A program made the translations under genes and the position numbers. From positions 800,001-864,000 of the forward strand of contig OY970342.1 of NCBI GenBank assembly GCA_963717505.1: a stretch of DNA of 64,000 nt. The letters run 5' to 3'. The DNA is from Candidatus Eiseniibacteriota bacterium. GTDB taxonomy: Bacteria > Eisenbacteria > RBG-16-71-46. Shown here piece after piece: positions 31,711 to 51,100 of this stretch; the stretch's first letter is position 1, and each line of letters begins with the position of its first letter. The notes beneath the pieces are model-generated. The model had not been told where the DNA came from and ran no database searches. It saw only the letters and a list, made by a program, of their open reading frames with translations.

Positions 31711-32739
31711 CTAGCGCTTTTTCACTGTGAACTCGTTCCCCGAAACCTCGACCATGTAGTCCCTGATCCCGGCCTGCATCATCTTGGCGTTGATCTCCGC
31801 AGACAGCGCCGCGTCGGTCATCGCCCCAGGATTCGGGATCTCGACCTGGGTCTTGCGTCCGCCGGCGCTGATATCGAGCACCAGCTTTTCGGCGCCCGAG
31901 GGGTCCTTCATGCGCCGGACCTGCACGGTCTGGCCATCGCCACCCAGAGCCTTCCCGTCTTTGGTGAGCTGAAGTTCGATCGGCTCGGGCGCCGAATCCC
32001 CGGCCTTCACCTGGTGGTCGGCGGTGACCTTGACCTCGCGACCGCCTCCGGCCAGATCGGTCACCGACACCTGGGTGTTGGTGATGCCGGCTGCGGCGAG
32101 CTTCTGCTGGATCTCCTGCTGCAACTGCTGAGCCGACTTGCCGTCGACGCTGACCTGGATCACGCGATCGCGGGCGTAGGCGTACATCGAACCCCACACG
32201 CGCTCGGTCTTCGGCGTCGCAGTCCAGGTCGCTTCATATCCACGCTCGCGCAGCGCCTGGCCGAACGCCTCCGCGCGCAACGCTCCCGACTTGCCGGGCG
32301 CGTTGGCCTCGAGAACGAACCGCGGTGCGCCATTTTCGACCTCCGCCCGAACCCGCACGCCCTGGACCCCCAGGGCCGATTCGAACTCGCCGGCGATGCT
32401 CTTCACCTGCGTCAGGTCATTCAGCCCGGTCAGGGTCAGCGCGACCTCATGACTCGAAGTCTTCTCGTACGAAAAAGGCACCACCATCAGGGCCACGACG
32501 ATCACCGCTGCGGCAGCGGCCGTCGCCAGCCATGGATTTCGTTTGATTGGATTCATCATGGACAACCAGCGCTCCTTCCTGGGCTCGGCCGCATCGACGC
32601 GGCGCGAGCGCGCCAGAGACAGGCTGTGCTCCAGACGGGGCAAGTCGCGAAGGGTTTCGGTCCGCAATGCCTCGAGATCGCCCGCCGCCTCACGCGGCAA
32701 CCCGGCGTCACGAAGGTCCTCGGGCCTCGACTCAGTCAT
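31711..32739 (-). CDS. Single-pass membrane protein, putative anti-sigma factor
   Basis: Overlaps the ECF gene stop; short N-terminus, one TM (WLATAAAAAVIVVALMVVPF), large extracytoplasmic part. Confidence 0.7.
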   Translation of the reverse strand: MTESRPEDLRDAGLPREAAGDLEALRTETLRDLPRLEHSLSLARSRRVDAAEPRKERWLSMMNPIKRNPWLATAAAAAVIVVALMVVPFSYEKTSSHEVALTLTGLNDLTQVKSIAGEFESALGVQGVRVRAEVENGAPRFVLEANAPGKSGALRAEAFGQALRERGYEATWTATPKTERVWGSMYAYARDRVIQVSVDGKSAQQLQQEIQQKLAAAGITNTQVSVTDLAGGGREVKVTADHQVKAGDSAPEPIELQLTKDGKALGGDGQTVQVRRMKDPSGAEKLVLDISAGGRKTQVEIPNPGAMTDAALSAEINAKMMQAGIRDYMVEVSGNEFTVKKR

Positions 32740-33367
32740 GGCTTCGCTCCTTTCCCACTGCGGCGGTCGGAACCAACCGGGGAATCGAGTTCACGCGTCC
32801 CACGACCTGCGCGTCGCGATGAGGCGACGTCGCCGCCGAGGCCAGCCCCAGGCGTTCGTAGTGGCGGCGCAACCGCTCCCGGCCGCGGACCAGGCGCGAC
32901 TTGATCGCCGACAACGACACCTGCTGCATGGTTGCGATCTCCTCGATCGAGAAGCCGTCCAGCTCGAAGAGGACGATGGCCTCCCGTTGCACGGGCGGCA
33001 GCGTCGCGAGGGCGGCAGACATCCGCCGCGTCTCGATCGTCTGCTCGCCCCACCGGCTGCCGTCCTCGCTTGCCGGCTCGGCGCCGCTCGGGAACGCGGC
33101 CTCCCAGGGGAGCATCCGCTTCCAGAACGACCGCCGCGCCCGGCTCCGATGCCTGGACAACAGCGTGACGAAGAACCAGGACCGGAACTTCGATTCGTCG
33201 CGAAGCGTGTCGAGCTTGTCGAACGCCCGGAGCACGGCCTCTTGATAGAGATCGTCCCCGTCGGCCGTCGAGCGGCACAGGCGACGTGCGGTCGCCACCG
33301 CCTGCTCGTGAAACGGTGCGAGCAGGGCGGCCAATCGGCGCCAGCGGGCTTCGGTCAAGTCGGTCAT
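32732..33367 (-). CDS. ECF RNA polymerase sigma factor
   Basis: DGDDLYQEA, FRSWFF, LPPVQREAIVL..LDGFS.EEIA, IKSRLVRGR. Confidence 0.9.
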   Translation of the reverse strand: MTDLTEARWRRLAALLAPFHEQAVATARRLCRSTADGDDLYQEAVLRAFDKLDTLRDESKFRSWFFVTLLSRHRSRARRSFWKRMLPWEAAFPSGAEPASEDGSRWGEQTIETRRMSAALATLPPVQREAIVLFELDGFSIEEIATMQQVSLSAIKSRLVRGRERLRRHYERLGLASAATSPHRDAQVVGRVNSIPRLVPTAAVGKERSHD

Positions 33368-33456
33368 CCTCGCGTCGCGTTCAGTCCTCTGGAGCGGAGA
33401 CGCCTGGAGGGGGTGAAAAAGTCGCAGGGAGTCGACCTCAACCCACGAGTCCGCCG

Positions 33457-34746
33457 TCAGGATGGCACGCTGCTCTTCAACTCCTCGAGGTCGTGCACCA
33501 GCGTGGACGGATCAGGGTAGCGGTCTTCGAGGCGCTTGCACATCATCCGCCGGATCACGCGGGCCAGCCCGCCGTGGACCTCGGGGTTCCGCGCCTCCAG
33601 AGGCTGGGGCTCGACATTGAGGACGTCCTCCAGCACCTGCGTGAGCGTCGTCGGCGCGAAAGGGGGCTCGCCGCACAAAGCGTAGTAATAGGTGGCGCCA
33701 AGCGAATAAACGTCGGAACGCAGGTCGGCGCGCGACCCGTCGAGCACCACTTCGGGGGCCATGTACATCGGGGTCCCGCGCATGTCGCCGGTTCGCGTGA
33801 ACCGCGCGTGCTCGGCGCTCGAGACCATCTTGGCGAGGCCCCAGTCGGCGAGCTTGGGAACGCCGTCGGCAGTCAACAGGATGTTCGCCGGCTTGATATC
33901 GCGGTGCACGAATCTCTGGCGTCCGGCGTGCTCCAGCGCGCCGGCGATTCGGATCAGGTGATTCATCGCGTCGTGGCTGGTTAGAGGTCCAGCGCGCTCG
34001 ATGCGCTCGCGCAGCGAGCCCCCTTCCATGTACTCCATCGCGAGAAACAGCAGCCCGCCGGCCTCACCGAAGTCCAGCACGCGAACGATGCTCGGATGGT
34101 TCATCCGGAGGCCCGTCTGGGCTTCGCGGATGAAGAAAAGCGCCGTCTGCGAGCTTCCCTGGAAATCGATCGTCTTGATGACGCAAGGCTCCTCGACTCC
34201 GACCGGTCGCGCGAGGAAGGCGACACCGGTCGAGCCGTTTCCGAGCTGGCGGAGAAGTGTGTACCCCTCGATCGAGGGCAGGGTCGATCCGGTCCTCTGG
34301 CCGCCGTCCTCCCGTCGCGGCTCCTCCGCGGTCGTCGCAGCCGGCGGCACGTGGGGCACAGCGTGCGGCGTGGGGGCGACATCGGTCACCCGCTGGAGCG
34401 TCGCGTGGAGGATCGCGGTCCGGTTCGGCGTTCCCGCAGGCGGAGAATCGCGTCCGAGGAGGAAGGTGATGCGCGCCTCCCCGACGAAAAACTCCTCGCC
34501 GGGATCGAGTGCCAACCGCTCGATGCGGCGGCCCCGGGCGTAGACGCCGCCCGGCGCGCCTAGATCGGTGACGAGTAGCTGGTGGCCGACCACTTCGACC
34601 CGACAGGGACCGTGATCGGGTTGCCGTGCGCCGGGAACGCCCGCCGTATCGGCGTCCAGAATCATCGACCGGTTCTCGATCTCCACGCTCTGAGCGGGAG
34701 CACCGTTCCGCTCGATGCGCAACGTCGCGAGCATGCAGGTACCCAT
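33457..34746 (-). CDS. Cytoplasmic Ser/Thr kinase with degenerate N-terminal FHA-like domain
   Basis: LLVTDLGAPGGVY FHA-like strand; GNGSTG, VIK, HRDIKPAN, DWG, GTPMYMAPE, SDVYSLG. Start uncertain (34746 or 34734). Confidence 0.85.
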   Translation of the reverse strand: MGTCMLATLRIERNGAPAQSVEIENRSMILDADTAGVPGARQPDHGPCRVEVVGHQLLVTDLGAPGGVYARGRRIERLALDPGEEFFVGEARITFLLGRDSPPAGTPNRTAILHATLQRVTDVAPTPHAVPHVPPAATTAEEPRREDGGQRTGSTLPSIEGYTLLRQLGNGSTGVAFLARPVGVEEPCVIKTIDFQGSSQTALFFIREAQTGLRMNHPSIVRVLDFGEAGGLLFLAMEYMEGGSLRERIERAGPLTSHDAMNHLIRIAGALEHAGRQRFVHRDIKPANILLTADGVPKLADWGLAKMVSSAEHARFTRTGDMRGTPMYMAPEVVLDGSRADLRSDVYSLGATYYYALCGEPPFAPTTLTQVLEDVLNVEPQPLEARNPEVHGGLARVIRRMMCKRLEDRYPDPSTLVHDLEELKSSVPS

Positions 34747-34906
34747 CGGGTCTGTGTCTTCCGGGAGCAGCTGGAACGATACACCCGTGCTCCACCCTCC
34801 GGCCACCCAAGCCTCGGCCGGCGCGGCCGGGCGGAGGACAGAGGCGTGGATGACGGCTCCTTCATGAGGTATCTTCTCCTCCCTTCCTCTCGACTCAGGA
34901 GGTGCC

Positions 34907-35311
34907 ATGGCCGTAGCAGATCAGCCGCCGGACGCTGGCAGTGCCTTGGAGGCTACCGTCGCATCGCCGCAGACGCGACCCCGCCCGGATCGCACGATGG
35001 GCGCGGACCCGCTGGCCGCGATTCGACTCGAAGTCGTCGGGGGACCGATGGACGGCATCACGGTCCAGAGCGACGCCGAAACCGTGACGATTGGCCGGGA
35101 TCCGGACTGTAACGTCTCGCTGCCGCTGGACCTCCTAGTGTCGAGTCATCACGCCCGCATCGTGCGCGAGGGCGGAGCATTCTGGCTCGAGGATCTCGGC
35201 AGCCGCAACGGCAGCTACGTGGGCGAGCGCAAGGTGGACGGCCGAGTTCAGATCACCCCGGGAACGCTTTTCGTTCTCGGGAGTACCTGCCTCGAGTTCG
35301 TGCCCGCCTGA
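34907..35311 (+). CDS. Stand-alone FHA domain protein
   Basis: AGGAGGT RBS; IGRDPDC, VSSHHA and DLGSRNGSY retain the GR, SxxH and NG pThr-binding motifs. Confidence 0.9.
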   Translation: MAVADQPPDAGSALEATVASPQTRPRPDRTMGADPLAAIRLEVVGGPMDGITVQSDAETVTIGRDPDCNVSLPLDLLVSSHHARIVREGGAFWLEDLGSRNGSYVGERKVDGRVQITPGTLFVLGSTCLEFVPA

Positions 35312-35324
35312 CGAGCACAGCGCT

Positions 35325-37571
<2,247 letters not shown>

Positions 37572-37578
37572 TCCTTCG

Positions 37579-38373
37579 TCAGCGAGCGTCCCGCCGGGAT
37601 CGGCCAGATGGCAGCTTCTCGTTGTTCCGCGCGCCGCCTCGCGGCTCGACCGGAGCGAGCCGCGCATCGCCCGAGGCATCGAGCATCGGGCTCGAGCGGT
37701 CTTCGGCGTGAGGTCCGTCCGAGTAAAGGAGCTTGAGCATCCCCCAGCTGACCTTGGGAACGTAGTCGGCGTCCATGCCATCCCAGGTCTGCGCCGGACC
37801 CGGCGCCGCAGACACCGGTGCGACGAAGTGAAAACGAGAGGCCGTGCGCTCGGGCTCACGCCGGCGCCGGCTGGCCGTGCGGACCCGGCGTCCGTCGAAG
37901 ATCAGGATTGAGAACCGCAGCGGCCGATCCGGAGCCAGGGCGACGCCGGCCACAACCGCCGTCACCGTGTCCCGCGCGGGATGGCGGCGAATACCGATGT
38001 GCCTCCACCCCGGATCGCGGAGCCGCTCGCCCCCATCGATTGACACCAGGAACCGGTACCAGACGACGACGGTCGAATCGCTGTTCGACCCGCGCTCTGG
38101 ATTCCACAGCTCGCACGACAGGGTGAGCGTGTCCTGGCTCACCGACGTCACGCGCAGATGGCCGGCCTTGACCGCCGCCGCGGCGTTACCCGTTCCGCCC
38201 GCGACCGCAGACCACAGGAGTCCCGACAAGATACCGATCCAGGTGGCGATGCGGCCGAATCGAACCGTAACCACAGCCGGACGGCGAGGGATGCAATCCA
38301 TCCCTCGCCGCGGCGTGACGTCACGATCGCCGGTCCTGACCCGATTGAGGACGATCATGACTCCGGTCCTCAC
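37579..38373 (-). CDS. Hypothetical exported protein
   Basis: Candidate GTG start overlaps the TGA of the upstream small gene (alternative ATG at 38301); hydrophobic signal-like segment; contains VSWGMLKLLY. Confidence 0.6.
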   Translation of the reverse strand: MRTGVMIVLNRVRTGDRDVTPRRGMDCIPRRPAVVTVRFGRIATWIGILSGLLWSAVAGGTGNAAAAVKAGHLRVTSVSQDTLTLSCELWNPERGSNSDSTVVVWYRFLVSIDGGERLRDPGWRHIGIRRHPARDTVTAVVAGVALAPDRPLRFSILIFDGRRVRTASRRRREPERTASRFHFVAPVSAAPGPAQTWDGMDADYVPKVSWGMLKLLYSDGPHAEDRSSPMLDASGDARLAPVEPRGGARNNEKLPSGRSRRDAR

Positions 38374-38762
38374 CAGCAGAAGTTGGGGTAGGAGACCGCC
38401 CGTTGCTGCTGATTGACCACGGTACCGGGGACGGTCTCGACCTCGATGCTGAGCTTGAGGCCGTGGGCGTCGCGCGGTGCGTAGAGCCGGAACACCTGAC
38501 CGGGCGCCAGGGGCATCAGCACCAGCTGCCAGGTGTGCAGCGGCGGCATGAACTCGCTGGCGCGAGCGATCAGGCGATAACGCATGGTCGAGGAGGTGGT
38601 GGTGCCGGCGTTGCGGATGTTGAAGATGTTGGAGCCCCGGCCGCAGACAGATTCGACGTTGAGGGTGACCTGGGCGTTGCTGCCATCGGCATGGGCGAAC
38701 GGAATCGAGAGGCAGAGGGCGGCGACCAGGGTCAGCATGAGCGACTTGCGATTGCGGTACAT
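38370..38762 (-). CDS. Small secreted protein, copy 1 (130 aa, Ig/CARDB-like)
   Basis: TAAGGAG RBS; MYRNRKSLMLTLVAALCLSIPFAHA signal peptide; identical to copy 2. Confidence 0.88.
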   Translation of the reverse strand: MYRNRKSLMLTLVAALCLSIPFAHADGSNAQVTLNVESVCGRGSNIFNIRNAGTTTSSTMRYRLIARASEFMPPLHTWQLVLMPLAPGQVFRLYAPRDAHGLKLSIEVETVPGTVVNQQQRAVSYPNFCW

Positions 38763-39097
38763 GGTGGTGATCTCCTTAGAGTTGGTTGAGAGTGAGTGGT
38801 TGAAGTGAGTGAAGGGTTTTTGGTGGAGCGATCGAGCGAACTGGGATCCTCGGGGTAGAGCCGGTGGTGTTCGGGTGGTGCCGTCCTCCTTTCGCGAGAG
38901 CCATCGAGTGGTGAGTTGCTTCGCGGGGGAGGTAGAGCAGCGCACGTGCCGGTCGTGCGGCGGAGCGGGGCAAGGGCGCGAGGTGGCTCGGGGAGAGCGA
39001 GTTAGCGGGATGGGGGACGCGGGGCGGCGGCGCGGGCGGACTCCGCGCGCGGAGAGAAACTCTACGTCCGGCGAGGATTCCTCTCAGGACGTGAAGA
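38372..39097 (-). repeat. Inverted repeat, left arm (726 bp)
   Basis: Reverse complement of 42988-43713; only one mismatch seen (38987 vs 43098). Confidence 0.95.
38936..38952 (-). promoter_or_regulatory. Putative sigma54 -24/-12 promoter (left arm)
   Basis: CCGGCACGTGCGCTGCT on the minus strand: GGCACG core with exact GG-N10-GC spacing. Confidence 0.7.
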
Positions 39098-39260
39098 GGG
39101 ACACGGGTGGGCGGCTTCGGGTGCGGGGGCCTTGTGACCCCATGAAGGCTCGCCTACATTTGCCCTGCTTGGAGAATTCTCGAGTGAGACAAGCGGCTCG
39201 ACCGCCATCAGGGATGCTCGAGGCGCAGCACGATCACCCGATCGACCGGAGGCAATCATC

Positions 39261-41204
39261 ATGATCGGCAGCGTGATCGACCGAACCTATCGCGTTGTCC
39301 GTCTGGTCGGCGACGGCGGGTTCGGAGTGGTTTACGAGTGCCAGGAACTGGAGCTCCATCGCTCGGTCGCCCTCAAGATGCTGAAGCCGGAGGTGACCGG
39401 AGAGAGTGAGATGCGGCGGTTCCTGGCGGAAGCGAAGAACATGGCCAGCTTGAACCACGCCAACGTGGTTCACATCTACCGTTTCGGCGTCTTCGAGGAC
39501 CGACCCTACATCGTCATGGAGTTCGTGCGCGGGCAAACACTCGATGAGCACGCGAAGCGGCAGCCTTCGATCCGGAACGTCCTCCAAGTGATGACCCAGG
39601 TGGCATCCGGCCTCTCCGCCATACACGGGATGACGATCGTGCACCGCGACCTGTCGCCAACGAACATCATGATCACCGAGGACGGCACGGCGAAGATCCT
39701 GGACCTCGGTCTGTCGCGGGACATGAGCAGCATGTCGGGCATGAACTCGAACCATCAGCTTCGAGGGACGCTCCCGTATGTCTCACCCGAGCAAATCGAG
39801 GAGCGGGGGGCCACGACTCTCTCGGAAATCTTCTCGTTCGGCGTGATCCTGTACGAGCAACTGACCGGGCAGCACCCGTTCCACGCCGAGCACCCGGTCT
39901 CGCTGATCTACAACATTGCCCAACGGGATCCGGACCCGGTCGGCGATCACCTGGAGAACTGCCCGCCGGAGCTGGCGGACCTTGTGCACGAATGCCTGCA
40001 CAAGAAGCCTGAGGATCGGCCGGCCAACATGGCGACGGTGAAGGAACGGCTCGACCGCATCTTGTCACGCCCGAGCCTCACCGCAGCCTCGCGCCCCGTC
40101 GTGGTAACCGCTGTCGAACCGCGGGCGACGCCACGCAATCCATACTTGAACCGCGTCATGATCAAGCACCGCGCCGACTTCTTCGGCCGCTCGCAGGACG
40201 TCAAGCGAATCTTTGCGCGGCTCAACGCTACGCCTCCCGGATCGATCTCCATCGTCGGGGAGCGCAAGATCGGGAAATCCTCGCTGCTGAACCACGTGTA
40301 CGCGCGCCAAACCCGGCAGACGTTCCTCGAGAATCCCGACGCGATGGTCATGGTGTTCCTGGACCTCCAAGAGGAGAAGGGAATGTCCATGCAAAGCTTC
40401 GTCAAGACCCTGCTCGGCATCGCCAACTATGAATTGCGCGGACGGCTGGACGTCTCCAGCTGCGCCCACAACCTCGACGGCGTGAAGGACTTGGTGCAGC
40501 GCCTGGACGCTGCGAACTACCGGCTGGCGATCCTGCTCGACGAGTTCGAGGGAGTGACGACGAACCCGAATTTCACGCTCGAGTTCTTCTCGTTCCTGCG
40601 CTACCTGGCCAATCACTACAACGTGGCCTACCTGACGTCTTCGGCATGCGACCTCCAGGTTCTCTGCCACACGAAGGAAATCTCGGACTCGCCATTTTTC
40701 AACATTTTTTCGACGATGCGTCTGGGGGTCTTCGAGCGATCGGAAGCCGATGAGCTCATTCGCGTTCCTTCGGAGCGTGTCGGCAAGCCGCTCGCCACCC
40801 ATACGGATCGGATCCTCGAGATGACGGGGCTGTTCCCGTTCTTCATCCAGATGGCGTGTTCACACGCCATCGAGCACCTGGACGAACACCCCGAGGCGAA
40901 GGCGCCGGATTTCGACGCGATCCGCCGCCGCTTCTACGAGGAGGCACGGCTCCACTTCCGCTATGTGTGGGATGGACTGGACGCGCACGAGCGGAGCACT
41001 CTGGTTCGGGTGGCTCAGGGCCGAGGCATTCCGGACTCGCTGAAGCACGTCCTGTCGGAGCTCGAGGTCCGGCACTACGTCGATGAAACACAGCGAGGCC
41101 CGCGGCTCTTTGCCGGTACGTTCGGACAGTACGTCCGCGAGGAAGCGAAGCGGATGCGGAAGCCTTCGCTCCTCGAGCGCATGTTCCAGGGCGCGGGGGG
41201 GTGA
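39261..41204 (+). CDS. Ser/Thr kinase fused to a STAND-type (AAA_35/nSTAND-like) NTPase
   Basis: GDGGFGVVY, VALK, HRDLSPTN, DLG, GTLPYVSPEQ; then NPY...FFGR, GERKIGKSS (Walker A), ILLDEFE (Walker B), GLFPFFIQ (GxP). Confidence 0.9.
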   Translation: MIGSVIDRTYRVVRLVGDGGFGVVYECQELELHRSVALKMLKPEVTGESEMRRFLAEAKNMASLNHANVVHIYRFGVFEDRPYIVMEFVRGQTLDEHAKRQPSIRNVLQVMTQVASGLSAIHGMTIVHRDLSPTNIMITEDGTAKILDLGLSRDMSSMSGMNSNHQLRGTLPYVSPEQIEERGATTLSEIFSFGVILYEQLTGQHPFHAEHPVSLIYNIAQRDPDPVGDHLENCPPELADLVHECLHKKPEDRPANMATVKERLDRILSRPSLTAASRPVVVTAVEPRATPRNPYLNRVMIKHRADFFGRSQDVKRIFARLNATPPGSISIVGERKIGKSSLLNHVYARQTRQTFLENPDAMVMVFLDLQEEKGMSMQSFVKTLLGIANYELRGRLDVSSCAHNLDGVKDLVQRLDAANYRLAILLDEFEGVTTNPNFTLEFFSFLRYLANHYNVAYLTSSACDLQVLCHTKEISDSPFFNIFSTMRLGVFERSEADELIRVPSERVGKPLATHTDRILEMTGLFPFFIQMACSHAIEHLDEHPEAKAPDFDAIRRRFYEEARLHFRYVWDGLDAHERSTLVRVAQGRGIPDSLKHVLSELEVRHYVDETQRGPRLFAGTFGQYVREEAKRMRKPSLLERMFQGAGG

Positions 41205-41263
41205 CGCTCGGCGGCGCCGCCGCCCCCGGCGACCGCGGCGCACGAGTCACCGAGCCCGGAGCA

Positions 41264-42868
41264 TCATCCCCCGAGGCCGTACTCCTTGAGCTTCTTGTAG
41301 AGGTAGGACTCGCTGATTTTGAGTCGCGCCGCGAGCTTGGCCCGCGTCATCCGCGGATAGCGGCGGAGGGCTTCCTCGAGCAACGCCTTCTCCTGCTGAG
41401 CCAGACTTGCGGTCAGCCCCTCGTCGATGTCGGCGACCTCGCCGCCGAGAGCGACTCCCGGCGTTGCACCCCGTTCAGGGGGGGCCTGGTCGGCGGCCGC
41501 GGCCCCTGAGCCACGCGTCGGGCCCAGCAGCCGTAGAACCATCCCCTTCCCGACCCGGCCGTCGGGCTTCTCCAGGACGAGGCGCGCCGCGAGTTGTTCG
41601 AGAGAGCGAACGTTGCCCGGCCAGGCGAAGTCCAGAGTCCTCAGGAACTCCTCTGCCTCGGGCTCGAGCTCGACCCAGCGCCCCTCTTCGCTCTGATCCA
41701 GGCAATGGCGTAGGACCAGGGGAATGTCCTCGACACGTTCGCGGAGCGGCGGGATGCGCACGGGAACGAAGTTGAGCCGCTCGAAGAGATCCCGGCGGAA
41801 CCGGCCCTGCATCACCTCTTCCTCCAGGTCGCGATTCGTGGCGGCAATCACCCGGACGTCGGACTTCAGTTCCTTTGGATCTCCGACACGCTCGTATGTC
41901 CGCTCCTGCAGCAGCCTCAGCAGCTTTGGCTGGATCTCGAGAGGAAGGTCCCCGATCTCGTCCAGGAACAACGTCCCCCCGTCTGCCGCCGGGACCTTCC
42001 CCAGACGATCGCTGACCGCACCGGTGAACGCTCCCTTGCGGTGGCCGAACAGCTCTGCTTCGACCATGCCACGTTCGAGGGAGGGGCAGAAGACCGTGAT
42101 CAACGGCTGCCGTGCGCGGTGGCCACCGTAGTGAATGATGCGCGCCAGGATGCTCTTGCCGGTACCCGTCTCACCCAGGATGAGAACGGGGAAGGTGGCC
42201 GAGGCGATCTTGTGCACTTGAGTCCCCAGTTGCTGAACCACCGGGGATTTTCCGATGAAGCGGCCGAAGGACCAGTCGCGGGACTGCGCGTCGCGGCTGG
42301 CTTCGGCTTCTTCGCGGAACTTCGACTCCGAAATCACGAGCTGATCCCGCTCGTGCAGGACGCTCCGGCTGGCCCTCAGCGCCTCGAGGACGGGGCCGGC
42401 CAGGTCGAGCAGGCCCCGCAGCAGTTCCTGGTGTTCGCGGGTGAAGTGTCCGGCCCGCCCGTTCTCGAGATGGACCAGGGCGGCAATCCCGTCGCTGGTC
42501 TTGATCGGCATGCACAGCACCGCCGCCATATGCACCGCCATGACCGAGCGCTGATGCTTGAAGCGCGGATCCAGAACCGCGCTGTAGAGGGTGATGCCCT
42601 CGCCGGTCTTCAGGACCTGTTCGAAGATGCCCTGGCTGAACGACGCGGACTCCCCATCGAGTCGTTCGGGCGAGAAGTTGTGGAGCACCTGGAAACTCAG
42701 CGTCCCACCACTCGACACCTCCACGAACACGCCGCGATCGGCCTGGGTCCGTGCGACCGCCTCGTCCAGAATCGTCCGCAGGACCGTGATGGGTTCGGCG
42801 ATCTGACACAGAACGGCCCGCAGAGCGTCCAGTAGAGGTTTCGAAGGAAGTGCTTCGGCAGCCGGCAT
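41264..42868 (-). CDS. GAF-domain sigma54-dependent Fis-family activator (bEBP)
   Basis: N-terminal GAF (DPRF..QRSV...VLCMPI); GETGTGKS, ELFGH.KGAFTGA, LFLDEIG, AATNRDL, WPGNVR; C-terminal HTH. Confidence 0.94.
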   Translation of the reverse strand: MPAAEALPSKPLLDALRAVLCQIAEPITVLRTILDEAVARTQADRGVFVEVSSGGTLSFQVLHNFSPERLDGESASFSQGIFEQVLKTGEGITLYSAVLDPRFKHQRSVMAVHMAAVLCMPIKTSDGIAALVHLENGRAGHFTREHQELLRGLLDLAGPVLEALRASRSVLHERDQLVISESKFREEAEASRDAQSRDWSFGRFIGKSPVVQQLGTQVHKIASATFPVLILGETGTGKSILARIIHYGGHRARQPLITVFCPSLERGMVEAELFGHRKGAFTGAVSDRLGKVPAADGGTLFLDEIGDLPLEIQPKLLRLLQERTYERVGDPKELKSDVRVIAATNRDLEEEVMQGRFRRDLFERLNFVPVRIPPLRERVEDIPLVLRHCLDQSEEGRWVELEPEAEEFLRTLDFAWPGNVRSLEQLAARLVLEKPDGRVGKGMVLRLLGPTRGSGAAAADQAPPERGATPGVALGGEVADIDEGLTASLAQQEKALLEEALRRYPRMTRAKLAARLKISESYLYKKLKEYGLGG

Positions 42869-42987
42869 CGAACGAAGCTCCTGCGGATCGACAGAAACGC
42901 AATCGATAGAAAAGCGCTCGGATTATAGGACGGCTGGGGTCTCCGGAGCACTCCGGAGGGATGCAAAGCCTCTCGCGCCGCGCACGG

Positions 42988-43713
42988 TCTTCACGTCCTG
43001 AGAGGAATCCTCGCCGGACGTAGAGTTTCTCTCCGCGCGCGGAGTCCGCCCGCGCCGCCGCCCCGCGTCCCCCATCCCGCTAACTCGCTCTCCCCGAACC
43101 ACCTCGCGCCCTTGCCCCGCTCCGCCGCACGACCGGCACGTGCGCTGCTCTACCTCCCCCGCGAAGCAACTCACCACTCGATGGCTCTCGCGAAAGGAGG
43201 ACGGCACCACCCGAACACCACCGGCTCTACCCCGAGGATCCCAGTTCGCTCGATCGCTCCACCAAAAACCCTTCACTCACTTCAACCACTCACTCTCAAC
43301 CAACTCTAAGGAGATCACCACCATGTACCGCAATCGCAAGTCGCTCATGCTGACCCTGGTCGCCGCCCTCTGCCTCTCGATTCCGTTCGCCCATGCCGAT
43401 GGCAGCAACGCCCAGGTCACCCTCAACGTCGAATCTGTCTGCGGCCGGGGCTCCAACATCTTCAACATCCGCAACGCCGGCACCACCACCTCCTCGACCA
43501 TGCGTTATCGCCTGATCGCTCGCGCCAGCGAGTTCATGCCGCCGCTGCACACCTGGCAGCTGGTGCTGATGCCCCTGGCGCCCGGTCAGGTGTTCCGGCT
43601 CTACGCACCGCGCGACGCCCACGGCCTCAAGCTCAGCATCGAGGTCGAGACCGTCCCCGGTACCGTGGTCAATCAGCAGCAACGGGCGGTCTCCTACCCC
43701 AACTTCTGCTGGT
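42988..43713 (+). repeat. Inverted repeat, right arm (726 bp)
   Basis: Reverse complement of 38372-39097. Confidence 0.95.
43133..43149 (+). promoter_or_regulatory. Putative sigma54 -24/-12 promoter (right arm)
   Basis: CCGGCACGTGCGCTGCT, with GG at 43135-43136 and GC at 43147-43148. Confidence 0.7.
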
Positions 43714-43715
43714 AA
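43323..43715 (+). CDS. Small secreted protein, copy 2 (130 aa)
   Basis: TAAGGAG RBS, ATG 43323, TAA stop; identical protein to copy 1. Confidence 0.88.
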   Translation: MYRNRKSLMLTLVAALCLSIPFAHADGSNAQVTLNVESVCGRGSNIFNIRNAGTTTSSTMRYRLIARASEFMPPLHTWQLVLMPLAPGQVFRLYAPRDAHGLKLSIEVETVPGTVVNQQQRAVSYPNFCW

Positions 43716-43742
43716 CGCCGGTTCGACAGGCGGCAATGAATG

Positions 43743-43774
43743 CGAGGGGTGGCGAAAGCCACCCCTCGTTGTTT
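43743..43774 (+). terminator. Rho-independent terminator
   Basis: CGAGGGGTGGC-GAAA-GCCACCCCTCG followed by TTGTTT. Confidence 0.85.
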
Positions 43775-43801
43775 CGTGCGCGCCGCACCGCCTGGGCACC
43801 G

Positions 43802-45630
43802 TCATCGGATGAGCACCATGCGGGCGCGCAGCACCTGACCACCGTGCATCAGTCGAATGAAATAGAGCCCCGCCCGCAGACGCGGAGAGTCGAGCGTCAC
43901 CACGTGGCTCCCCGGGCCGAGCCCGCCGACATCGCGGCGCAGCACCCGGCGCCCGGCGAGGTCGATCACCTCGAGCACCCCCGGGTCGCGGCTCGGCAGG
44001 GTGAATGCGATCCGTGCCGTTCCTATCGCGGGGTTGGGACGCGCTCCGGCCAGCGCCAGCTTCGGCGGTCCTTCAATCTCGACATCAGTGGTCGAGGTGA
44101 TCTGGACGTCAAATCCGGGCGGACCCGGCGGGTCCTCGCGATTGTCCACGTGGTCACGGGCACGGCTGTAGAACGCGTACGTGTGGGGCTGGAGGTCACC
44201 GGGGCGCCGCTCGAAGATGGCGGAGGTGAGCGGGGTGGTGAGCCACTCATCTTTGAAGGCACCGTCCTCGAAGTAGTAGACCGTGTAGTTCAGGACGTCG
44301 GCGGGGTCGCCCTCCGGTGCCCAGCTCACCGTGAAGCTGCGCTCCATCTGGGGATTGCCCAACGTCAGCACGTGGCTGGCCGGCGGCGTGTCGTCCACGT
44401 AGTTGGTCCACGCCGGGATCGGGACGGTCATCGGCGGGTTGGTGTCGAATCGGATGGTCGCCGAGTTGGTGATCTCGGTGTGCTGGGGCAGGCCGCTGCG
44501 CGGTCGCACGGTGAACAGGACGCTGCCCTCGCCCTCGGGTGAGTTGTTGTTGGCGGGCAGGAACCCGGCGCCGGGCGGCAGCGGACCATTGGGGTTCACC
44601 GAGTTGAAGTACCAGGTCAGCGTCCTGCCGATCAGGGTCACGTTCACGTCGACTCTCAGGTTCGGGTTCAGGAGCTTCGATTCCGTCCGATCGAATTGCG
44701 GGTAGCAATGGTAGGGAGTGCCGGTCGGGTCCTTGCCGAAGGTGACGGTGCCGAGCCTGAGGGTGGCCGGGTCGAGATCGGCGTCGAGCACGTCGGTCAC
44801 CTGCGCGTGCTGGGCGGGGAACATCGCGCCGGCCAGGTTCTCGAAGTGGATCGTGTAGGTGAGGTCATCCCGACTGGTGATGGTGCCGCCGATGCCCCGG
44901 TTGCCGAACTTGTCGCTGGGGTCGACCGCCCCCCCGGCCTCGACCAGCAGCACCTCGCGCCAGGTGGTCGACAGCGACTGGCCGCAGCCCGTCGGAACCG
45001 AGTCCTGCTCGACCGACTGGAGCATGAAGCCCAGCGCCTGGCGGGCTTCGGCCAGCGCGGCGGCCAGGCTGGCGGCGCCCTCGCACTGCCAGCCGATCTT
45101 GGCCCACACCCCGATCCCATTCATCGCCTGGACTTGCGGCTGGCCGGCGAGACTGTCGTTGAGTGCCGTGAGCTGGCTCCCCATGCAGGCGGTGTTGGTG
45201 ATCACGGCGCTCATGCAGTTGCGAAACGCGGTGTTGTTCACCCACGGCGGCGTCAACGCCACGGTGAGCGGGAACGTCGTGGGAGCGGGGACCGTCAGGT
45301 ACACCCTGCGGACCGAGGTCCCCGGCGGCACGCGCGGGATGATCATCGCCAGGTAGCGGCCGCCGGCACTGGCCAAAGTGTCCGGGAGCAGGCTCCAGAT
45401 GGGTTCGCCACCGCTCTGCGGCGGATCGGCGAGCGGGAAGTCGAGCGCGACGGTGGCACTGTCGGGTATGCCAGCGATCCACAGCGGCACGGTCAGCGCA
45501 TCGATATTGCCGGGGTTCTGGAGAACGAGGTCGAAGGCGGTTGGATAGCCGGTGCGGATGACGTCCGGGCCAATGATGTCGACGCGCAACGGGGCCGCCG
45601 CCCCGCTGTCGATGGTGAAGCCGTTGGGCA
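43802..45630. repeat. Direct repeat of about 1.8 kb shared by the 3' halves of the tandem paralogs (other copy about 48181-50000)
   Basis: Long runs of identical DNA; the last ~80 aa of the two proteins are nearly identical. Confidence 0.9.
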
Positions 45631-47989
45631 GGGACGCAGTCTGGAGGTCGGGGTTGACGACCACCACGTCCCACAGGCCCTGCGCCTGGCCGGCTAGGTC
45701 GAAGGTCGCGGTGAGGCTGAGACCATCGTCCGCCACTAGCACCCCGCTGCCCGGAATGTCCGGTTGTCCCGAGCGCGAGAGCCTGACCGTGGCGCCGTTC
45801 AGCAGGTTGTGTCCCGCGACCGTAACCGTCACGACGCCAGTGTTACCGCCGCTCGCTGGCTGCACCGCCTGGACGTCCGGCATGGCTGCGATGGCAGCGA
45901 TGCCGCTCTGTGGCAACCCGCCGATGCTGGTGAAGGACCCGCCTGCGTAGATCGTAGAGCCGCTCACCGTGAGGGCCAACACGAGGCTGGCGGCGTCCGG
46001 ATTCCAGGCGGTGGCGGCACCGGCCGTGGCATCGAGGGCGGCGACGTAGTTACGCGCTTGCGCGCCGATGCTGGTGAAGTCCCCGCCCGCGTAGACCGTG
46101 GAGCCGCTCACCGCCAGGGCGCGGACCCCGGCGTTGGCGCTCGGGCTCCATGCGGAGGCCACTCCGGTGATGGTATCAAGGGCGGCGACGTAGCTGCGCG
46201 CTTGTGCGCCGATGCTGCTGAAGGCCCCGCCCGCGTACACCGTTGAGCCGTTCACCGCCAGGGCGAGGACGAAGCTGTTGGCGTTTGGGTTCCAGGCAGT
46301 GGCGAGCCCGGTGGTGGCATTGAGCGCCGCGATGCGGTTGCGCGCCTGCCCGCCGATGCTGGTGAAGTCCCCGCCCGCATAGACCGTGGAGCCGCTCACC
46401 GCCAGGGCGGAGACGTAGCCGTTCGCGTTCGGGTTCCAGGCGGTGGCCATGCCGGTCGTGGCATCGAGGGCGGCGATGTAATTGCGCGCTTGCCCGCCGA
46501 TACTGGTGAAGTCGCCGCCCGCGTAGACCGTGGAGCCGCTCACCGCGAGGGCCCGGACACTCTGGTCGGCGTTCGGGCTCCAGGCAGTGGCGAGCCCGGT
46601 GGTGGCATCGAGCGACGCGATCCGGTTGCGCGCCTGCCCGCCGATGCTGGTGAAGCCCCCCACCGCGTAGACGGTGGAACCGCTCACCCCCAGGGCCAAG
46701 ACGGGCCCATCGGCGTTCGGGTTCCAGGCGGTGGCGGCCCCGGTTGTGGCGTCCAGGGCGGCGATGTTGTTGCGCGTCTGCCCACCGAGGCTGGTGAATT
46801 CTCCCCCTGCATAAATGGTGGAGCCACTCACGGCGAGGACCCACACCCCGTTGTTGGCGTTGGGGTCCCAGGCGGTGGCCATACCGGTCGTGGCATCGAG
46901 AGCGGCGATGAAGTTGCGCGCTTGCCCACCGATGCTGGTGAAGTATCCGCCCGCATAAACGGTAAGACCGCTCACCGCGAGGGTGTAGACCTCGCCGTCG
47001 GTGCTCGGGTTCCAGGCAGTGGCGGCACCGGTCCCGGTGTCGAGGGCGGCAATGGTGTTGCGTGTCGAATCGCCGATGCTGGTGAAGGGCCCGCACGCGT
47101 AGACGATGTTGTCGCTTACCGCGATCCCCCAGACGTTGGAGTTCGCGTTCGGGTTCCAGGCGGTGGCCGCGCCGGTCGTGGCGTCGAGGGCGGCGATGTG
47201 GTTGCGAGTCGAATCGCCGATGATCGTGAAGTTCCCTCCCGCGTAGATGGTGGAGTTTCTCACCGCGATCACGTAGAGGTAAGAGTTCGCGTTCGGGTTC
47301 CAGGCGGTGGCCGCGCCGCTCGTAGCATCGAGGGCGGCGATGTAGTTGCGAGTCGAATCGCCGATGCTGGTGAAGGCCCCGCACGCATAGACTGTGGAGC
47401 TGCTCACCGCGAGGCTGCGGACCTCGCCGTCGGCGCTAGGGTTCCAGGCAGTGGCCTCACCGGTCGCGGCATCGAGGGCGGCGATGTAGTTGCGCGCCTG
47501 CCCGCCGATGGTGGTGAAGATCCCGCCCGCGTAGACGGTGGTGCCGCTCACCGCGAGGCAATTAATCAGCGCGTCCGCGTTCGGATTCCAGGTGGATACC
47601 GACATGTCCGAAGCCACGTGGGCAACGTTTGACCGTGGAATGCCTCCCACGGCGGTGAACCATCCTCCCACGTACCAGCCACCTGCTCCGTCGGGGACCG
47701 CCGCATACACGATGCCGGTGATTCTTGGGAACGACGACGGCAGCCCGCCGCTCGCGACATCGATGGGAACGCCACCGCCGGTGGCGGGCCCCACCTGGCT
47801 GAAGGATCCGCCAATGTAAACCGTCCCTCCCTCGCGGACGACGCCATTCACCTGGCCATTCGTGACCCAAAGGTTCTCGTCGATCGCCTGTGCGATCCCC
47901 TCGCCGGCCGTCAACGGCACGAACGCGATGGCTAGGCCGAGGGTGACCAGGTCACGGAAGCGCCGCAAAAAGCCCCGTCGACGCGCCAG
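43802..47989 (-). CDS. Giant secreted protein: 14-blade beta-propeller, IPT/TIG, DPNDK-type (DUF7619-like), FN3-like and FlgD/CTD-like domains (paralog B)
   Basis: 14 propeller repeats; QPASGGNTG IPT-like start; DPSDK...LTYTIHFEN; tail VIDLAGRRV...LRAGLYFIRL. Start uncertain (CTG at 47989 after GAGGAGG proposed). Confidence 0.85.
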   Translation of the reverse strand: MARRRGFLRRFRDLVTLGLAIAFVPLTAGEGIAQAIDENLWVTNGQVNGVVREGGTVYIGGSFSQVGPATGGGVPIDVASGGLPSSFPRITGIVYAAVPDGAGGWYVGGWFTAVGGIPRSNVAHVASDMSVSTWNPNADALINCLAVSGTTVYAGGIFTTIGGQARNYIAALDAATGEATAWNPSADGEVRSLAVSSSTVYACGAFTSIGDSTRNYIAALDATSGAATAWNPNANSYLYVIAVRNSTIYAGGNFTIIGDSTRNHIAALDATTGAATAWNPNANSNVWGIAVSDNIVYACGPFTSIGDSTRNTIAALDTGTGAATAWNPSTDGEVYTLAVSGLTVYAGGYFTSIGGQARNFIAALDATTGMATAWDPNANNGVWVLAVSGSTIYAGGEFTSLGGQTRNNIAALDATTGAATAWNPNADGPVLALGVSGSTVYAVGGFTSIGGQARNRIASLDATTGLATAWSPNADQSVRALAVSGSTVYAGGDFTSIGGQARNYIAALDATTGMATAWNPNANGYVSALAVSGSTVYAGGDFTSIGGQARNRIAALNATTGLATAWNPNANSFVLALAVNGSTVYAGGAFSSIGAQARSYVAALDTITGVASAWSPSANAGVRALAVSGSTVYAGGDFTSIGAQARNYVAALDATAGAATAWNPDAASLVLALTVSGSTIYAGGSFTSIGGLPQSGIAAIAAMPDVQAVQPASGGNTGVVTVTVAGHNLLNGATVRLSRSGQPDIPGSGVLVADDGLSLTATFDLAGQAQGLWDVVVVNPDLQTASLPNGFTIDSGAAAPLRVDIIGPDVIRTGYPTAFDLVLQNPGNIDALTVPLWIAGIPDSATVALDFPLADPPQSGGEPIWSLLPDTLASAGGRYLAMIIPRVPPGTSVRRVYLTVPAPTTFPLTVALTPPWVNNTAFRNCMSAVITNTACMGSQLTALNDSLAGQPQVQAMNGIGVWAKIGWQCEGAASLAAALAEARQALGFMLQSVEQDSVPTGCGQSLSTTWREVLLVEAGGAVDPSDKFGNRGIGGTITSRDDLTYTIHFENLAGAMFPAQHAQVTDVLDADLDPATLRLGTVTFGKDPTGTPYHCYPQFDRTESKLLNPNLRVDVNVTLIGRTLTWYFNSVNPNGPLPPGAGFLPANNNSPEGEGSVLFTVRPRSGLPQHTEITNSATIRFDTNPPMTVPIPAWTNYVDDTPPASHVLTLGNPQMERSFTVSWAPEGDPADVLNYTVYYFEDGAFKDEWLTTPLTSAIFERRPGDLQPHTYAFYSRARDHVDNREDPPGPPGFDVQITSTTDVEIEGPPKLALAGARPNPAIGTARIAFTLPSRDPGVLEVIDLAGRRVLRRDVGGLGPGSHVVTLDSPRLRAGLYFIRLMHGGQVLRARMVLIR

Positions 47990-48180
47990 GAGATGACCCT
48001 CCTCGCGATGCCCAGCACCGCCATGCTCTCCTTGGACCTCAACGGATGTACACGGCGACGACGCGAAGGTTGGCAGTCGCCCCGGTTGCGAGCGGTCGCC
48101 GAATTCATCCGAACACCCCAATCGCGCCGGCACCGACTGCCACGCGGCGCATAGCTCGGGCTTCGGCCCAACCTGAGCGG

Positions 48181-51100
48181 TCATCGGATGAGCACCATGC
48201 GGGCGCGCAGCACCTGCCCACCGTGCATCAGTCGAATGAAATAGAGCCCCGCCCGCAGACGCGGGGAGTCGAGCGTCACCACGTGGCTCCCTGGGCCGAG
48301 CGCGCCGACGTCGCGGCGCAGCACCCGGCGCCCGGCGACGTCGATCACCTCGAGCACCGCCGGGTCGCGGCTCGGTAGGGTGAACGCGATCCGTGCCGAA
48401 CCAATCGCGGGGTTGGGACGCGCTCCGGCCAGCGCCAGCTTTGGCGGTCCTTCAATCTCGACGTCGGTGGTCGAGGTGGTCTGGACGTCGAATCCCGGCG
48501 GATCCGGCGGGTCCTCGCGATTGTCCACGTGGTCACGGGCCTGGCTGTAGAAGCGGTAGACGTGGGGTTGGTGGTCATCGCTGCGCGGCTCGAACACCCC
48601 AAAGGTGAGCGGTGTGCTGAGCCGCGGCAGGAAGGGACCGCCGTCCTCTGAGGCGTAGAGGGTGTAGTTCAGGACGTCGGCGGGGTCGCTATCCGGGGCC
48701 CAGCTCACCGTGAAGCTGCGGCCGATTTGGGGACTGCCCAACGTCAGCACGTGGCTCGCCGGCGGCGTGACGTCCACGAAGTTAGTCCACGCCGGGGTGG
48801 TCATCGTCGGGTTGGTGTCGAATCGGATGGTCGCCGAGTTGGAGATCTCGGTGTGCTGGGGTAGACCGTTGCGCGGTTTCACCGTGAACAGCACGCTGCC
48901 CTCGCCCTCGCCGTGGTCGCCATTCGGAGGCAGGAACCCGGCGTCGGGCGGCAGCGGACCATTGGGGTTCACGGAGTTGAAGTACCAGGTCAGCGTCCTG
49001 CCGATCAGGGTCACGTTCACGTCGACTCTCAGGTTCGAGTTCAGGAGCCTCGATTCCGTCCGATCGAATTCCGGGTAGCAATGGTGGGGAGTGCCGGTCG
49101 GGTCCTTGCCGAAGGTGACGGTGCCGAGCCTGAGGGTGGTCAGGTCGAGATCGGCGTCGAGCACGTCGGTCACCTGCGCGTGCTGGGCGGGGAACAAGGC
49201 GCCGGCCAGGTTCTCGAAGCGGATCGTGTAGGTGAGGTCATCCTGGCCGGTGATGGTGCTGTCCAAGCCGCGGTTGCCAAACTTGTCGTTGGGGTCGATC
49301 GAACCGCCGGCCTCGACCAGCAGCACCTCGCGCCAGGTGGTCGACAGCGACTGGCCGCAGCCCGTCGGGACCGAGTCCTGCTCGACCGACTGGAGCATGA
49401 AACCCAACGCCTGACGCGCCTCGGCCAGCGCGGGAGCCAGACCGAAGGCGCCCTCGCACTGCCAGCCGATCTTCGCCCACACCCCGATCCCATTCATCGC
49501 TTGAATCCCGAGATGGCTCACGAGGTCGTTGAGTTCCGTGAGATGGCTCCCCATGCAATTGGTGTTGGTGATCACGGCGCTCATGCAGTTGCGGAACACC
49601 GTGTTGTTCACCCACGGTGGCGTCAACGCCACGGTGAGCGGGAACGTCGTGGGTGCGGGGACCGTCAGGTACACCCTGCGGACTGAGGTCCCGGGCGGCA
49701 CGCGCGGGATGATCATCGCCAGGTAGCGGCCGCCGGCACTGGTCAAAGTGTCGGGAAGCATGCTCCAGACTGGCTCGCCTGCGTCTTGGGGCGGATCGGC
49801 AAGCGGGAAGTCGAGCGTGACGGTGGCGCTGGTGGGTATACCGGCGATCCACAGCGGCACGGTCAGCGCATCGATGTTGCCGGGGTTCTGGAGGACGAGG
49901 TCGAAGGCGGTTGGATACCCGGTGCGGATGACGTCGGGGCCAATGATGTCCACGCGCAGCGGGACCCCTTCCACGCTGTCGATGGTGAAGCCACCGGCGA
50001 GCGTGGCTGTCTGAAGATCGGGGGTGGTGACCACAACGTCCCATGCACCGACCGCTGCATCCTGCAGATCGAATCTCGCGCCCAGGCTCATTCCGTCTGA
50101 CGCCACCGGGAAGGTGGTGGCGATGATGTCCGGCTCGCCCGAACGGGAGAGTTTCGCCTCCGCGCCGGCCACCAGCCCGCTCCCCGACAACGTCACCGTC
50201 ACCTCGCCGCCGTTGCCGCCGCTCGCCGGCTGCGAGGAAACGAGCGACGGGGCGGCGGCGATCGCGGCGGCGTAGGCCTGGGGCCGACCCCCGACACCGA
50301 GAAAGTCTCCGCCCACGTACAAGGTGACGCCGCTGACCGCGAGCGCTGAAATGCTGAAAGGCTGGGTGGGCCCCTTGGTAAACACCCTGGCGTTGGGATC
50401 GAAGGGGCTGACCCGGGGATTCCACGCGCCGACGGCCGTGCTAGCCGCATCGAACGCGGCGATGAACTTGCGCGGCTGACCGCCGATCGTCGTGAAGTCT
50501 CCTGATGCATAGAGCGTAGTGCCGCTCACTGTCAGTCCGAGGACGTCGAGATCGGCGCCCGGGTCCCAGAGGGTGGCGTGTCCACTCGTGGTGTCGAGGG
50601 CGGCAATGTGGCTACGCAGCTTGCCATCCACGCTGGTGAAACCTCCGCCGATGTAAACCGTCGAGCCGCTCACAGCGATCGCCGACACGTTGTCGTTTGC
50701 GTTCGGATCCCAGGCAGTGGCGGCCCCGGTCGTGGCGTCGAGAGCGGCAATGCGATTGCGGGTCTGGCCGCCGATGCCGGTGAAATACCCACCGGCGTAG
50801 ACCGTCGAGCCGACCACCGCGAGCGCGTCCACCTCGCTGTTGGCGTTCGGGTTGAATGCCGTGGCCGCTCCGCTCGTGCCGTCCAGGGCCGCGATCCAGT
50901 TGCGCGTCTGACCTCCGATCTGACTGAAATTGCCGGCGACATAGATGGTCGAGCCGCTTGGTGCGATGGCGTAGACCGGTCCGATGGCATTGGGATTCCA
51001 CGCGGTCGCGAGGCCGGTCGTGACATCGAGCGCGGCGATTCGATTGCGCGGTTGACCACCGATGCCGGTGAAGTCCCCGCCGGCGTAGAGCGTGGAGCCG

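Follow-up and report, generated by a model that had tools for sequence, protein, structure and literature searches.

Why would a genome that is poor in repeats carry the same promoter and gene twice, in mirror image, on the two sides of a probable regulator? This question is raised by a 64,000-nt stretch from an uncultured soil bacterium, a Candidatus Eiseniibacteriota bacterium (genome G000, a single contig of 4,162,540 bases, of which positions 800001-864000 are referred to here as the window). In the window, two inverted arms of 726 bp each carry a gene for the same small secreted protein and enclose a gene for a Ser/Thr kinase and a gene for a sigma-54 activator. An earlier note on this DNA had described the arrangement as a self-contained phosphorylation-to-sigma-54 switch driving a doubled effector. 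We consider instead, with a probability of roughly 60%, that the locus represents an old duplication kept uniform by gene conversion, rather than a mobile cassette or an on/off switch.

The mirrored expression unit

The left arm (38372-39097, minus strand) and the right arm (42988-43713, plus strand) are reverse complements across 726 nt. Independent comparison gave 725 of 726 identical bases, with the single mismatch at 38987/43098, in agreement with the earlier note. In the 40 nt outside each end, similarity is at chance level only, and the outer edge of the repeat falls inside the stop codon, which reads TGG-TGA in the left arm and TGG-TAA in the right one, again as previously described. 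The arms are separated by a spacer of 3890 nt. The small gene with its upstream region occurs exactly twice in the 4.16-Mb contig, and a search of the genome with a profile of the promoter region matched the two arms and nothing else. Repeats are otherwise scarce in this genome: a survey for pairs with a minimum length of 300 bp and a minimum identity of 95% returned 13 pairs in about five families, comprising two tandem arrays, a 1360-nt pair, the tuf pair and the 726-bp repeat. The tandem arrays are located at G000:C1:592851-595020, with a 306-nt period and 97-98% identity, and at 646331-649236. The 1360-nt pair (G000:C1:447689-449027 / 1940663-1942022) is inverted, 98.5% identical and 1.5 Mb apart, and it contains no reading frame open throughout.

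Each arm is directed outward and encodes an identical 130-aa protein. The right copy of the gene is located at 43323..43715 on the plus strand (open reading frame (ORF) 43323-43712 plus the stop codon) and the left copy at 38370..38762 on the minus strand. Between the arms lie, as the earlier note had reported, only a gene for a kinase fused to an NTPase (39261..41204, plus strand) and a gene for an activator of the bacterial enhancer-binding protein (bEBP) type (41264..42868, minus strand). These two genes converge, and their stop codons are 59 nt apart. The distance from gene start to arm is 164 nt for the kinase gene and 120 nt for the activator gene, which diverges from the right arm.

Upstream of the small gene, the elements listed in the earlier note (dyads, a GG-N10-GC promoter, a C/A-rich leader and a ribosome-binding site) were all found. 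Sigma-54 promoters are characterized by GG and GC doublets 10 nt apart in a TGGCAC-N5-TTGCW-like context. The -24/-12 element of the right arm, CGGCACGTGCGCTGCT (43134..43149, plus strand; mirror copy 38936-38951, minus strand), reads CGGCAC-N5-CTGCT with the GG-N10-GC spacing and matches 9 of the 11 consensus positions, so transcription would be expected to start near 43160 and 38925. About 90-140 nt upstream of the promoter are two dyads (42993..43044, plus strand; mirror 39041-39092), which are candidate activator-binding sites. The first spans 42993-43021 with 14-nt arms, and the second, at 43029-43044, is the palindrome CTCTCCGCGCGCGGAG. Downstream, a 5' leader of about 163 nt (43160..43322, plus strand; mirror 38763-38925, minus strand) ends in the ribosome-binding site AAGGAG, with 8 nt separating it from the ATG at 43323. 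Between genera, the initial ~60 nt of the leader are kept, while the remainder is C/A-rich; the leader is C-rich on the coding strand, with a GC skew of -0.36 at 43000-43499 and of +0.33 on the mirror arm. A structured leader or riboswitch was considered and dropped because the leader folds no better than shuffled sequences (z = 0.81), and an Rfam search of 37000-45000 returned a chance-level match alone (E = 0.91). Short upstream ORFs in the leader were likewise rejected, as they are not conserved between species when compared by eye. A scan for sigma-70 promoters gave 0 sites.

The promoter can be followed outside this genome. The nearest comparison is provided by species B, which belongs to another genus of the same Candidatus Eisenbacteria family and is represented by the metagenome-assembled genome (MAG) G024 and the metagenome loci L012-L015. 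Both L012 and L013 keep the promoter as TGGCAC-N5-CTGCT, and their alignment with the window is conserved in the -24/-12 element, in the ~60 nt of leader that follow it and in blocks ~90-140 nt upstream. A palindrome with the same CTCCGCG core is found at the equivalent position in L012, and a similar one in a more distant relative, G011. In G011, the promoter TGGCACGGCCGCTGCA lies 74 nt before the ATG of the small-gene homolog; in another relative, G112, the promoter TGGCATGCCGAGTGCT lies ~196 nt before the ATG, and downstream of it come a GAAAGGAGG box and a window-like, C/A-rich leader. Overall, a sigma-54-type promoter precedes the small gene in all five visible upstream regions, from four species (the window with its arm counted once, L012, L013 copy B, G011 and G112). 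Sites of comparable quality occur genome-wide at 0.053 per strand-kb, so this recurrence is not due to chance, and the promoter appears to be a trait of the small-gene family. The conservation in all visible homologs also supports the proposal of the earlier note that each arm is a complete, predicted sigma-54-type expression unit. As a side observation, an (A/G)AAGGAGG or ATGGAGG box is present ~35-45 nt past the promoter, well before the ribosome-binding site, in the window (43160-43220) and in locus L069 of G112 (834-880).

Age and uniformity of the duplication

The two copies of the unit have different outer settings, and both settings were recovered in species B. On the left, a gene for a 259-aa protein (p259; 37579..38358, minus strand) begins with an ATG at 38358, 12 nt (four codons) past the stop of the small gene, and the two are predicted to be co-transcribed. 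In species B, a p259 homolog of 37% identity starts ~15 nt after the small-gene stop, next to a convergent ClpA-like gene (80-84% identical) and a Ser/Thr kinase neighbour (69%). The earlier suggestion that the left copy reads on into 37579-38358 thus agrees with an operon layout that appears conserved in another genus. On the right, the copy ends, as had also been suggested, at an intrinsic terminator (43742..43769, plus strand), a hairpin of 12 pairs that occurs once in the 4.16-Mb genome even when cut down to a 7-bp stem. Locus L013 of species B contains two tandem copies of the unit, each ending at a terminator that shares a 10-bp stem, CGAGGGGTGG / CCACCCCTCG, with the right-copy terminator of the window. 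Both settings occur within one MAG, with matches of 99-100% at G024:C182 and G024:C128. Linkage to the operon and linkage to the terminator therefore appear to predate the split between the genus of G000 and its sister genus.

Within the window the copies are 99.86% identical, whereas identity to the species B copies is 69-72% for DNA and 55% for the protein. The species B copies form a mosaic when compared with one another: the first 200 nt are identical at 186 positions (93%), the next ~230 nt, covering the late leader, signal peptide and N-terminus, share about 55-65% identity, and over the last ~290 nt identity rises to 98-100%. In the window, the homogenised tract spans the entire unit. 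Two units are present in G000 and at least three in species B. Identity higher within a genome than between genera, shared settings and mosaic tracts, the signs of concerted evolution, are all found here, and they fit gene conversion better than recent copying; the diverged middle segment in species B further indicates that the duplication is old. An ancient and homogenised duplication, which the earlier note had missed, is thus what these comparisons point to. The two EF-Tu genes (tuf; 402015-403214 / 418530-419729) give another example of homogenisation in this genome, being identical at 1200 of 1200 positions, in direct orientation and 17.7 kb apart.

Based on these observations, we propose that the whole sigma-54 transcription unit was duplicated before the genus split. 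One copy would head an operon with the membrane-anchored beta-sandwich protein p259, and the other would stand alone, terminated by its hairpin. Recombination between the copies would then have removed the differences that had built up, throughout the unit in G000 and in some segments of it in the sister genus. The copies are probably retained for dosage, since together they would yield a burst of small protein exceeding the amount of p259. The activator gene starts 120 bp from the right arm, and its product is the most likely candidate to bind both sets of dyads and, together with sigma-54, to activate both promoters; by analogy with NorR or NifA, its GAF domain would restrain the ATPase until a signal arrives.

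Several observations weigh against this reading. The sole rpoN locus found (G000:C1:3872749-3874143; 283 bits summed against a cut-off of 277) is split over at least three frames relative to the RpoN of G011, each piece being still highly similar to it; if these frameshifts are real, the promoters would be dead. In a random sample of 90 of the 115 collected ORFs of relatives (300-900 aa), 25 had a clear ortholog in G000, and 5 of these (4 distinct genes) were also split over frames. Marker completeness is 86.7% for a one-contig genome. In view of both values, we read the rpoN split as an error of an indel-rich long-read assembly, in which case the single mismatch between the arms may itself be an error. 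Furthermore, the species B contigs end in or near the repeat and leave the interval between its copies uncovered, and the orthology of the right-copy setting is based on a short hairpin and loose synteny (one ortholog is 51 kb away here and 7 kb away in species B). The closest activator homolog, in G112 (66% identity, 746 bits), is found on a different contig from the G112 small-gene homolog; adjacency is therefore not conserved, and it is proximity that pairs the activator with the arms in the window. Finally, the predicted fold of the small protein matches only generic immunoglobulin-like (Ig-like)/FN3 domains (Z 5.6-7.6), and the window protein has no Pfam match, even at E <= 1.

The core genes and competing explanations

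The kinase gene encodes a 647-aa Ser/Thr kinase fused to an nSTAND2 NTPase (PF20702; 146 bits against a cut-off of 24, residues 326-589). The HRD, DLG and SPE motifs are present, and the catalytic loop reads HRDLSPTN, without the lysine that this loop usually carries. The G+C content of the gene is 0.61-0.63, below that of its flanks. The activator, of 534 aa, has a GAF - sigma-54 AAA+ - helix-turn-helix (HTH) architecture. Its central domain scores 209 bits with Sigma54_activat (PF00158; cut-off 20.2), AAA_lid is also present, and the sequences GETGTGKS, LFLDEIGD and KGAFTGA, which we take to be the Walker A, Walker B and GAFTGA loop elements, were all identified. The C-terminal HTH_8 match is weak (18.8 bits against a 22-bit cut-off, residues 489-530). 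Overall, the activator reads as intact. None of the named NCBIfam equivalogs was reached (NifA, 310 against 529 bits; NorR, 299 against 476), and PADLOC returned generic kinase and RtcR-like AAA+ matches alone. In a poorly resolved bEBP tree of 14 rows, the window activator is placed on a long branch and in no starred clade; a partial locus from G012 was excluded from this tree and from the adjacency count below.

The leading alternative, proposed in the earlier note, is a self-contained cassette. A signal sensed by the STAND-kinase would lead it to phosphorylate the GAF activator, the activator would fire both promoters, and the trio of small gene, kinase and activator would have evolved, and would move, as a single module. 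All parts are present and intact within 5.4 kb. In addition, the clade of the activator is commonly associated with kinases: among 13 of the 14 loci with full-length activator homologs of 55-66% identity (including L049-L060), 12 have a gene for a Ser/Thr kinase no more than 1 kb away; the two genes often share an operon, and in several cases they overlap by 4 nt. As the genomes compared are related and thus not independent, the count of 12 of 13 overstates the support for a kinase-activator link. These neighbour kinases are moreover of a different type, with lengths of 750-890 aa and TPR repeats in 5 of the 8 that were scanned. Other members of the clade have sigma-54-type sites within 1-3 kb. 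Separately, ~1 kb from the G112 activator homolog, locus L084 (G112:C110, ~11075-11270, minus strand) contains a different sigma-54-type promoter, TGGCATACCTGCTGCT, followed by a gene for a basic 43-aa peptide (MKTQTHLKAG...).

The relatives of the kinase point elsewhere. Orthologs of the kinase-nSTAND2 protein were found in 3 of 60 relatives, and those of G047 (L032, 10245-14363) and G053 (L033, 8492-12576) overlap or abut a gene for a 724-728-aa STAND-PEGA protein in a two-gene operon, with no bEBP gene within the fetched loci of 19-20 kb. The partner scores with nSTAND1, ATPase_2 or AAA_22, together with PEGA and carboxypeptidase-regulatory-like domains, and not with nSTAND2. A look-alike of this partner stands alone in G000 (G000:1763727; 1.76 Mb), ~0.9 Mb from the window kinase, and no second STAND NTPase gene was found in the window beside the kinase. 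Additionally, neither a bEBP gene nor a kinase gene accompanies the small-gene homolog of G011 (8 kb upstream, 9 kb downstream) or that of G112 (1 kb upstream, 11 kb downstream). No further repeat-bearing contig was found in G024, and no kinase there matches the window kinase outside the kinase domain.

The trio appears, on these comparisons, not to be a conserved module. The search for it in relatives counts against the cassette in G011 and G112, and is incomplete for species B, where the upstream side is unassembled. The description of the cassette as self-contained is not supported, since the kinase orthologs pair with STAND-PEGA genes and the distant small genes lack both partners; a phosphorylation-to-sigma-54 switch is not supported as it was stated, with kinase orthologs lacking a bEBP, and what survives of it is some link between kinases and activators, seen in the 12 clade loci. 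Together with the low G+C content of the kinase gene and its missing lysine, this makes the cassette unlikely in our view. Under gene conversion of an old duplication, the kinase-nSTAND2 gene would be a later, lineage-specific arrival, separated from its usual STAND-PEGA partner. It may nevertheless feed into the activator, because the activator clade almost always has a kinase neighbour.

A single recent copying of the 726-bp unit, too young for divergence, would account for the one mismatch, the sharp ends and the presence of two copies only. Such a copying would leave unexplained the operon-linked and terminator-linked settings with homologous flanks in another genus and the diverged middle (about 55-65%) of the species B copies. 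It would also need the same unique terminator to be created again after the stop codon, and we regard it as quite improbable.

Phase variation, in which recombination between the arms flips the 3.9-kb core and alters expression, is considerably less probable still. An inverted near-identity of 726 bp is an adequate substrate for homologous recombination, and tufA/tufB inversions have reportedly occurred in Salmonella. Each small-gene promoter, however, is contained in its arm and directed outward, and the sequences upstream of the core genes would flip along with them, so that an inversion would change no link between promoter and gene. Consistent with the earlier note, a domain scan of the core genes, the flanking genes and a further 14 ORFs (at least 100 aa, between 21.8 and 63.8 kb) detected no transposase or recombinase, site-specific or other. 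Inversion of the core is possible and may occur as a by-product of conversion, with no evident regulatory effect.

That one copy was falsely doubled is hardly credible: the assembly does contain many indel errors and the short public contigs (151-506 nt, 2-5x depth, from four sequencing runs) cannot span an arm, but 726 bp lies well inside single long reads of a one-contig 4.16-Mb assembly, the outer flanks differ, are biologically sensible and each have a conserved counterpart in a relative, the junction between left arm and core is bridged by two public contigs (X2 at 38988-39281 with 0 differences, X3 at 38934-39164 with 2), and several copies are seen in relatives as well, whose contigs all break in or near the repeat, consistent with a multi-copy status.

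The secreted product, known systems and outer flanks

The 130-aa product has a signal peptide with a cleavage site read by eye as AHA/DG, a Cys pair (Cys40 and Cys129) conserved in the closer subfamily, and the C-terminus PNFCW. It is modelled as a seven-strand beta-sandwich (pLDDT 88-94 over residues 31-130). Among the structural matches is the CARDB structure 3idu_A (Z 6.7, root-mean-square deviation 2.9 over 89 residues), tied with many Ig-like/FN3 domains. The CARDB threshold (PF07705) was reached by 3 of 18 members of the small-protein family. P0016 scores 24.7 bits, and the G011 homolog, which itself matches the family profile at E = 3e-10, scores 36.8 bits. An ESM Atlas lead placed the small protein in a cluster with CARDB on 40% of members (0.81). 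Since the window protein has no Pfam hit of its own while other members and the G011 homolog fall on CARDB, we describe it as a diverged CARDB relative, and not as a member by the Pfam gathering threshold. CARDB is usually a module in large proteins; the window product stands alone, with 105 aa. The window subfamily has lost the acidic ESNExxN-like end of the distant homologs of G011 and G112 and carries instead the Cys pair and the PNFCW terminus.

The protein is close to an orphan and belongs to a rare family. A word-indexed search covering 5.8 billion clusters yielded 18 scored candidates, of which 4 reached E <= 0.1, including the query itself, and a hidden Markov model search of 1.84 billion representatives gave 14 at E <= 0.001, three of them long repetitive proteins regarded as spurious. 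The family profile is present in 4 of the 102 genomes of the order (G000, G024, G011 and G112). The short contigs (584-1547 bp) that hold many family members were considered as a sign of collapsed repeats and not used, as metagenome contigs are mostly short.

The operon partner p259 is composed of a short cytoplasmic N-terminus, one transmembrane helix (37-53), a beta-sandwich (61-167) and a disordered tail. Its model is usable for residues 61-167 alone (pLDDT 70-79 in the sandwich), the tail being unmodelled. Only two homologs are known, and an ESM Atlas lead suggested an FN3-like domain (0.78). PDB sequence profiles gave no match for the small protein or p259, and a predicted complex of the small protein with the p259 ectodomain scored 0.00, which counts neither way.

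The mechanisms involved are all known; it is their combination that is unusual, namely an entire promoter-gene unit that is homogenised in more than one genus and lies mirrored around a likely regulator, with a product from a new small-protein family. Long-lasting concerted evolution is described as rare in prokaryotes and as affecting mostly core genes (PMC6053082). As in tufA/tufB, the paralogs here are closer within a genome than the orthologs are between genera, and the copies are kilobases apart. The homogenised unit differs in being a regulatory unit with a non-essential, lineage-restricted gene for a secreted protein rather than a core translation or metabolic gene, and its copies bracket a probable regulator. 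The activator resembles NorR and NifA in its architecture of GAF, AAA+ with GAFTGA and HTH and in the position of its gene beside a sigma-54 target; it remains far below their equivalog cut-offs, and its own, family-specific clade is nearly always paired with Ser/Thr kinases. For NorR, the GAF domain is described as repressing the AAA+ ATPase until a signal is received (PMC2941729). Two-gene nSTAND2 systems have been predicted to act as counter-invader systems (Kaur et al. 2021, PMC8195603). As far as that description goes, the window kinase resembles them in carrying nSTAND2 and in having G047 and G053 orthologs in operons with a second STAND NTPase, and departs from them in lacking the second gene, while the partner in the relatives is of a type other than nSTAND2.

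No current view is overturned by these results, and their value lies in testable handles on gene regulation in an uncultured group. The locus offers a checkable case of long-lasting concerted evolution acting on the whole regulatory unit of a non-essential, lineage-restricted gene. It also defines, in a phylum known from metagenomes only, a rare protein family whose members are small, secreted beta-sandwiches and whose genes share a conserved sigma-54 promoter and leader. Further handles are the recurrent pairing of sigma-54 activators with Ser/Thr kinases and a STAND-kinase parted from its usual partner. More speculatively, NLR-like STAND or TPR Ser/Thr kinases might act on GAF sigma-54 activators along a route general to this Eisenbacteria family, in which case a kinase derived from a counter-invader STAND pair would here trigger a burst, amplified by dosage, of a secreted, CARDB-like coat or shield. 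This idea is quite improbable; if true, it would link an immune-type sensor to sigma-54 transcription, with units held identical by gene conversion under selection.

Regarding the wider neighbourhood, the region to the left of the operon (window 32732-37571) encodes an extracytoplasmic function (ECF) sigma factor, a 342-aa domain-less protein, a 483-aa Ser/Thr kinase and a 748-aa ClpA/ClpB-like ATPase; in species B, the genes for the 483-aa kinase and the Clp-like protein also adjoin the small gene. Beyond the right arm (43802-52407), two proteins of 1460 and 1408 aa were identified with DUF5122 beta-propeller repeats, DUF7619 and type IX secretion system (T9SS) sorting tails. Such tails agree with the superphylum to which the Eisenbacteria belong. 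At the corresponding position, species B encodes a Sortilin/BNR protein instead.

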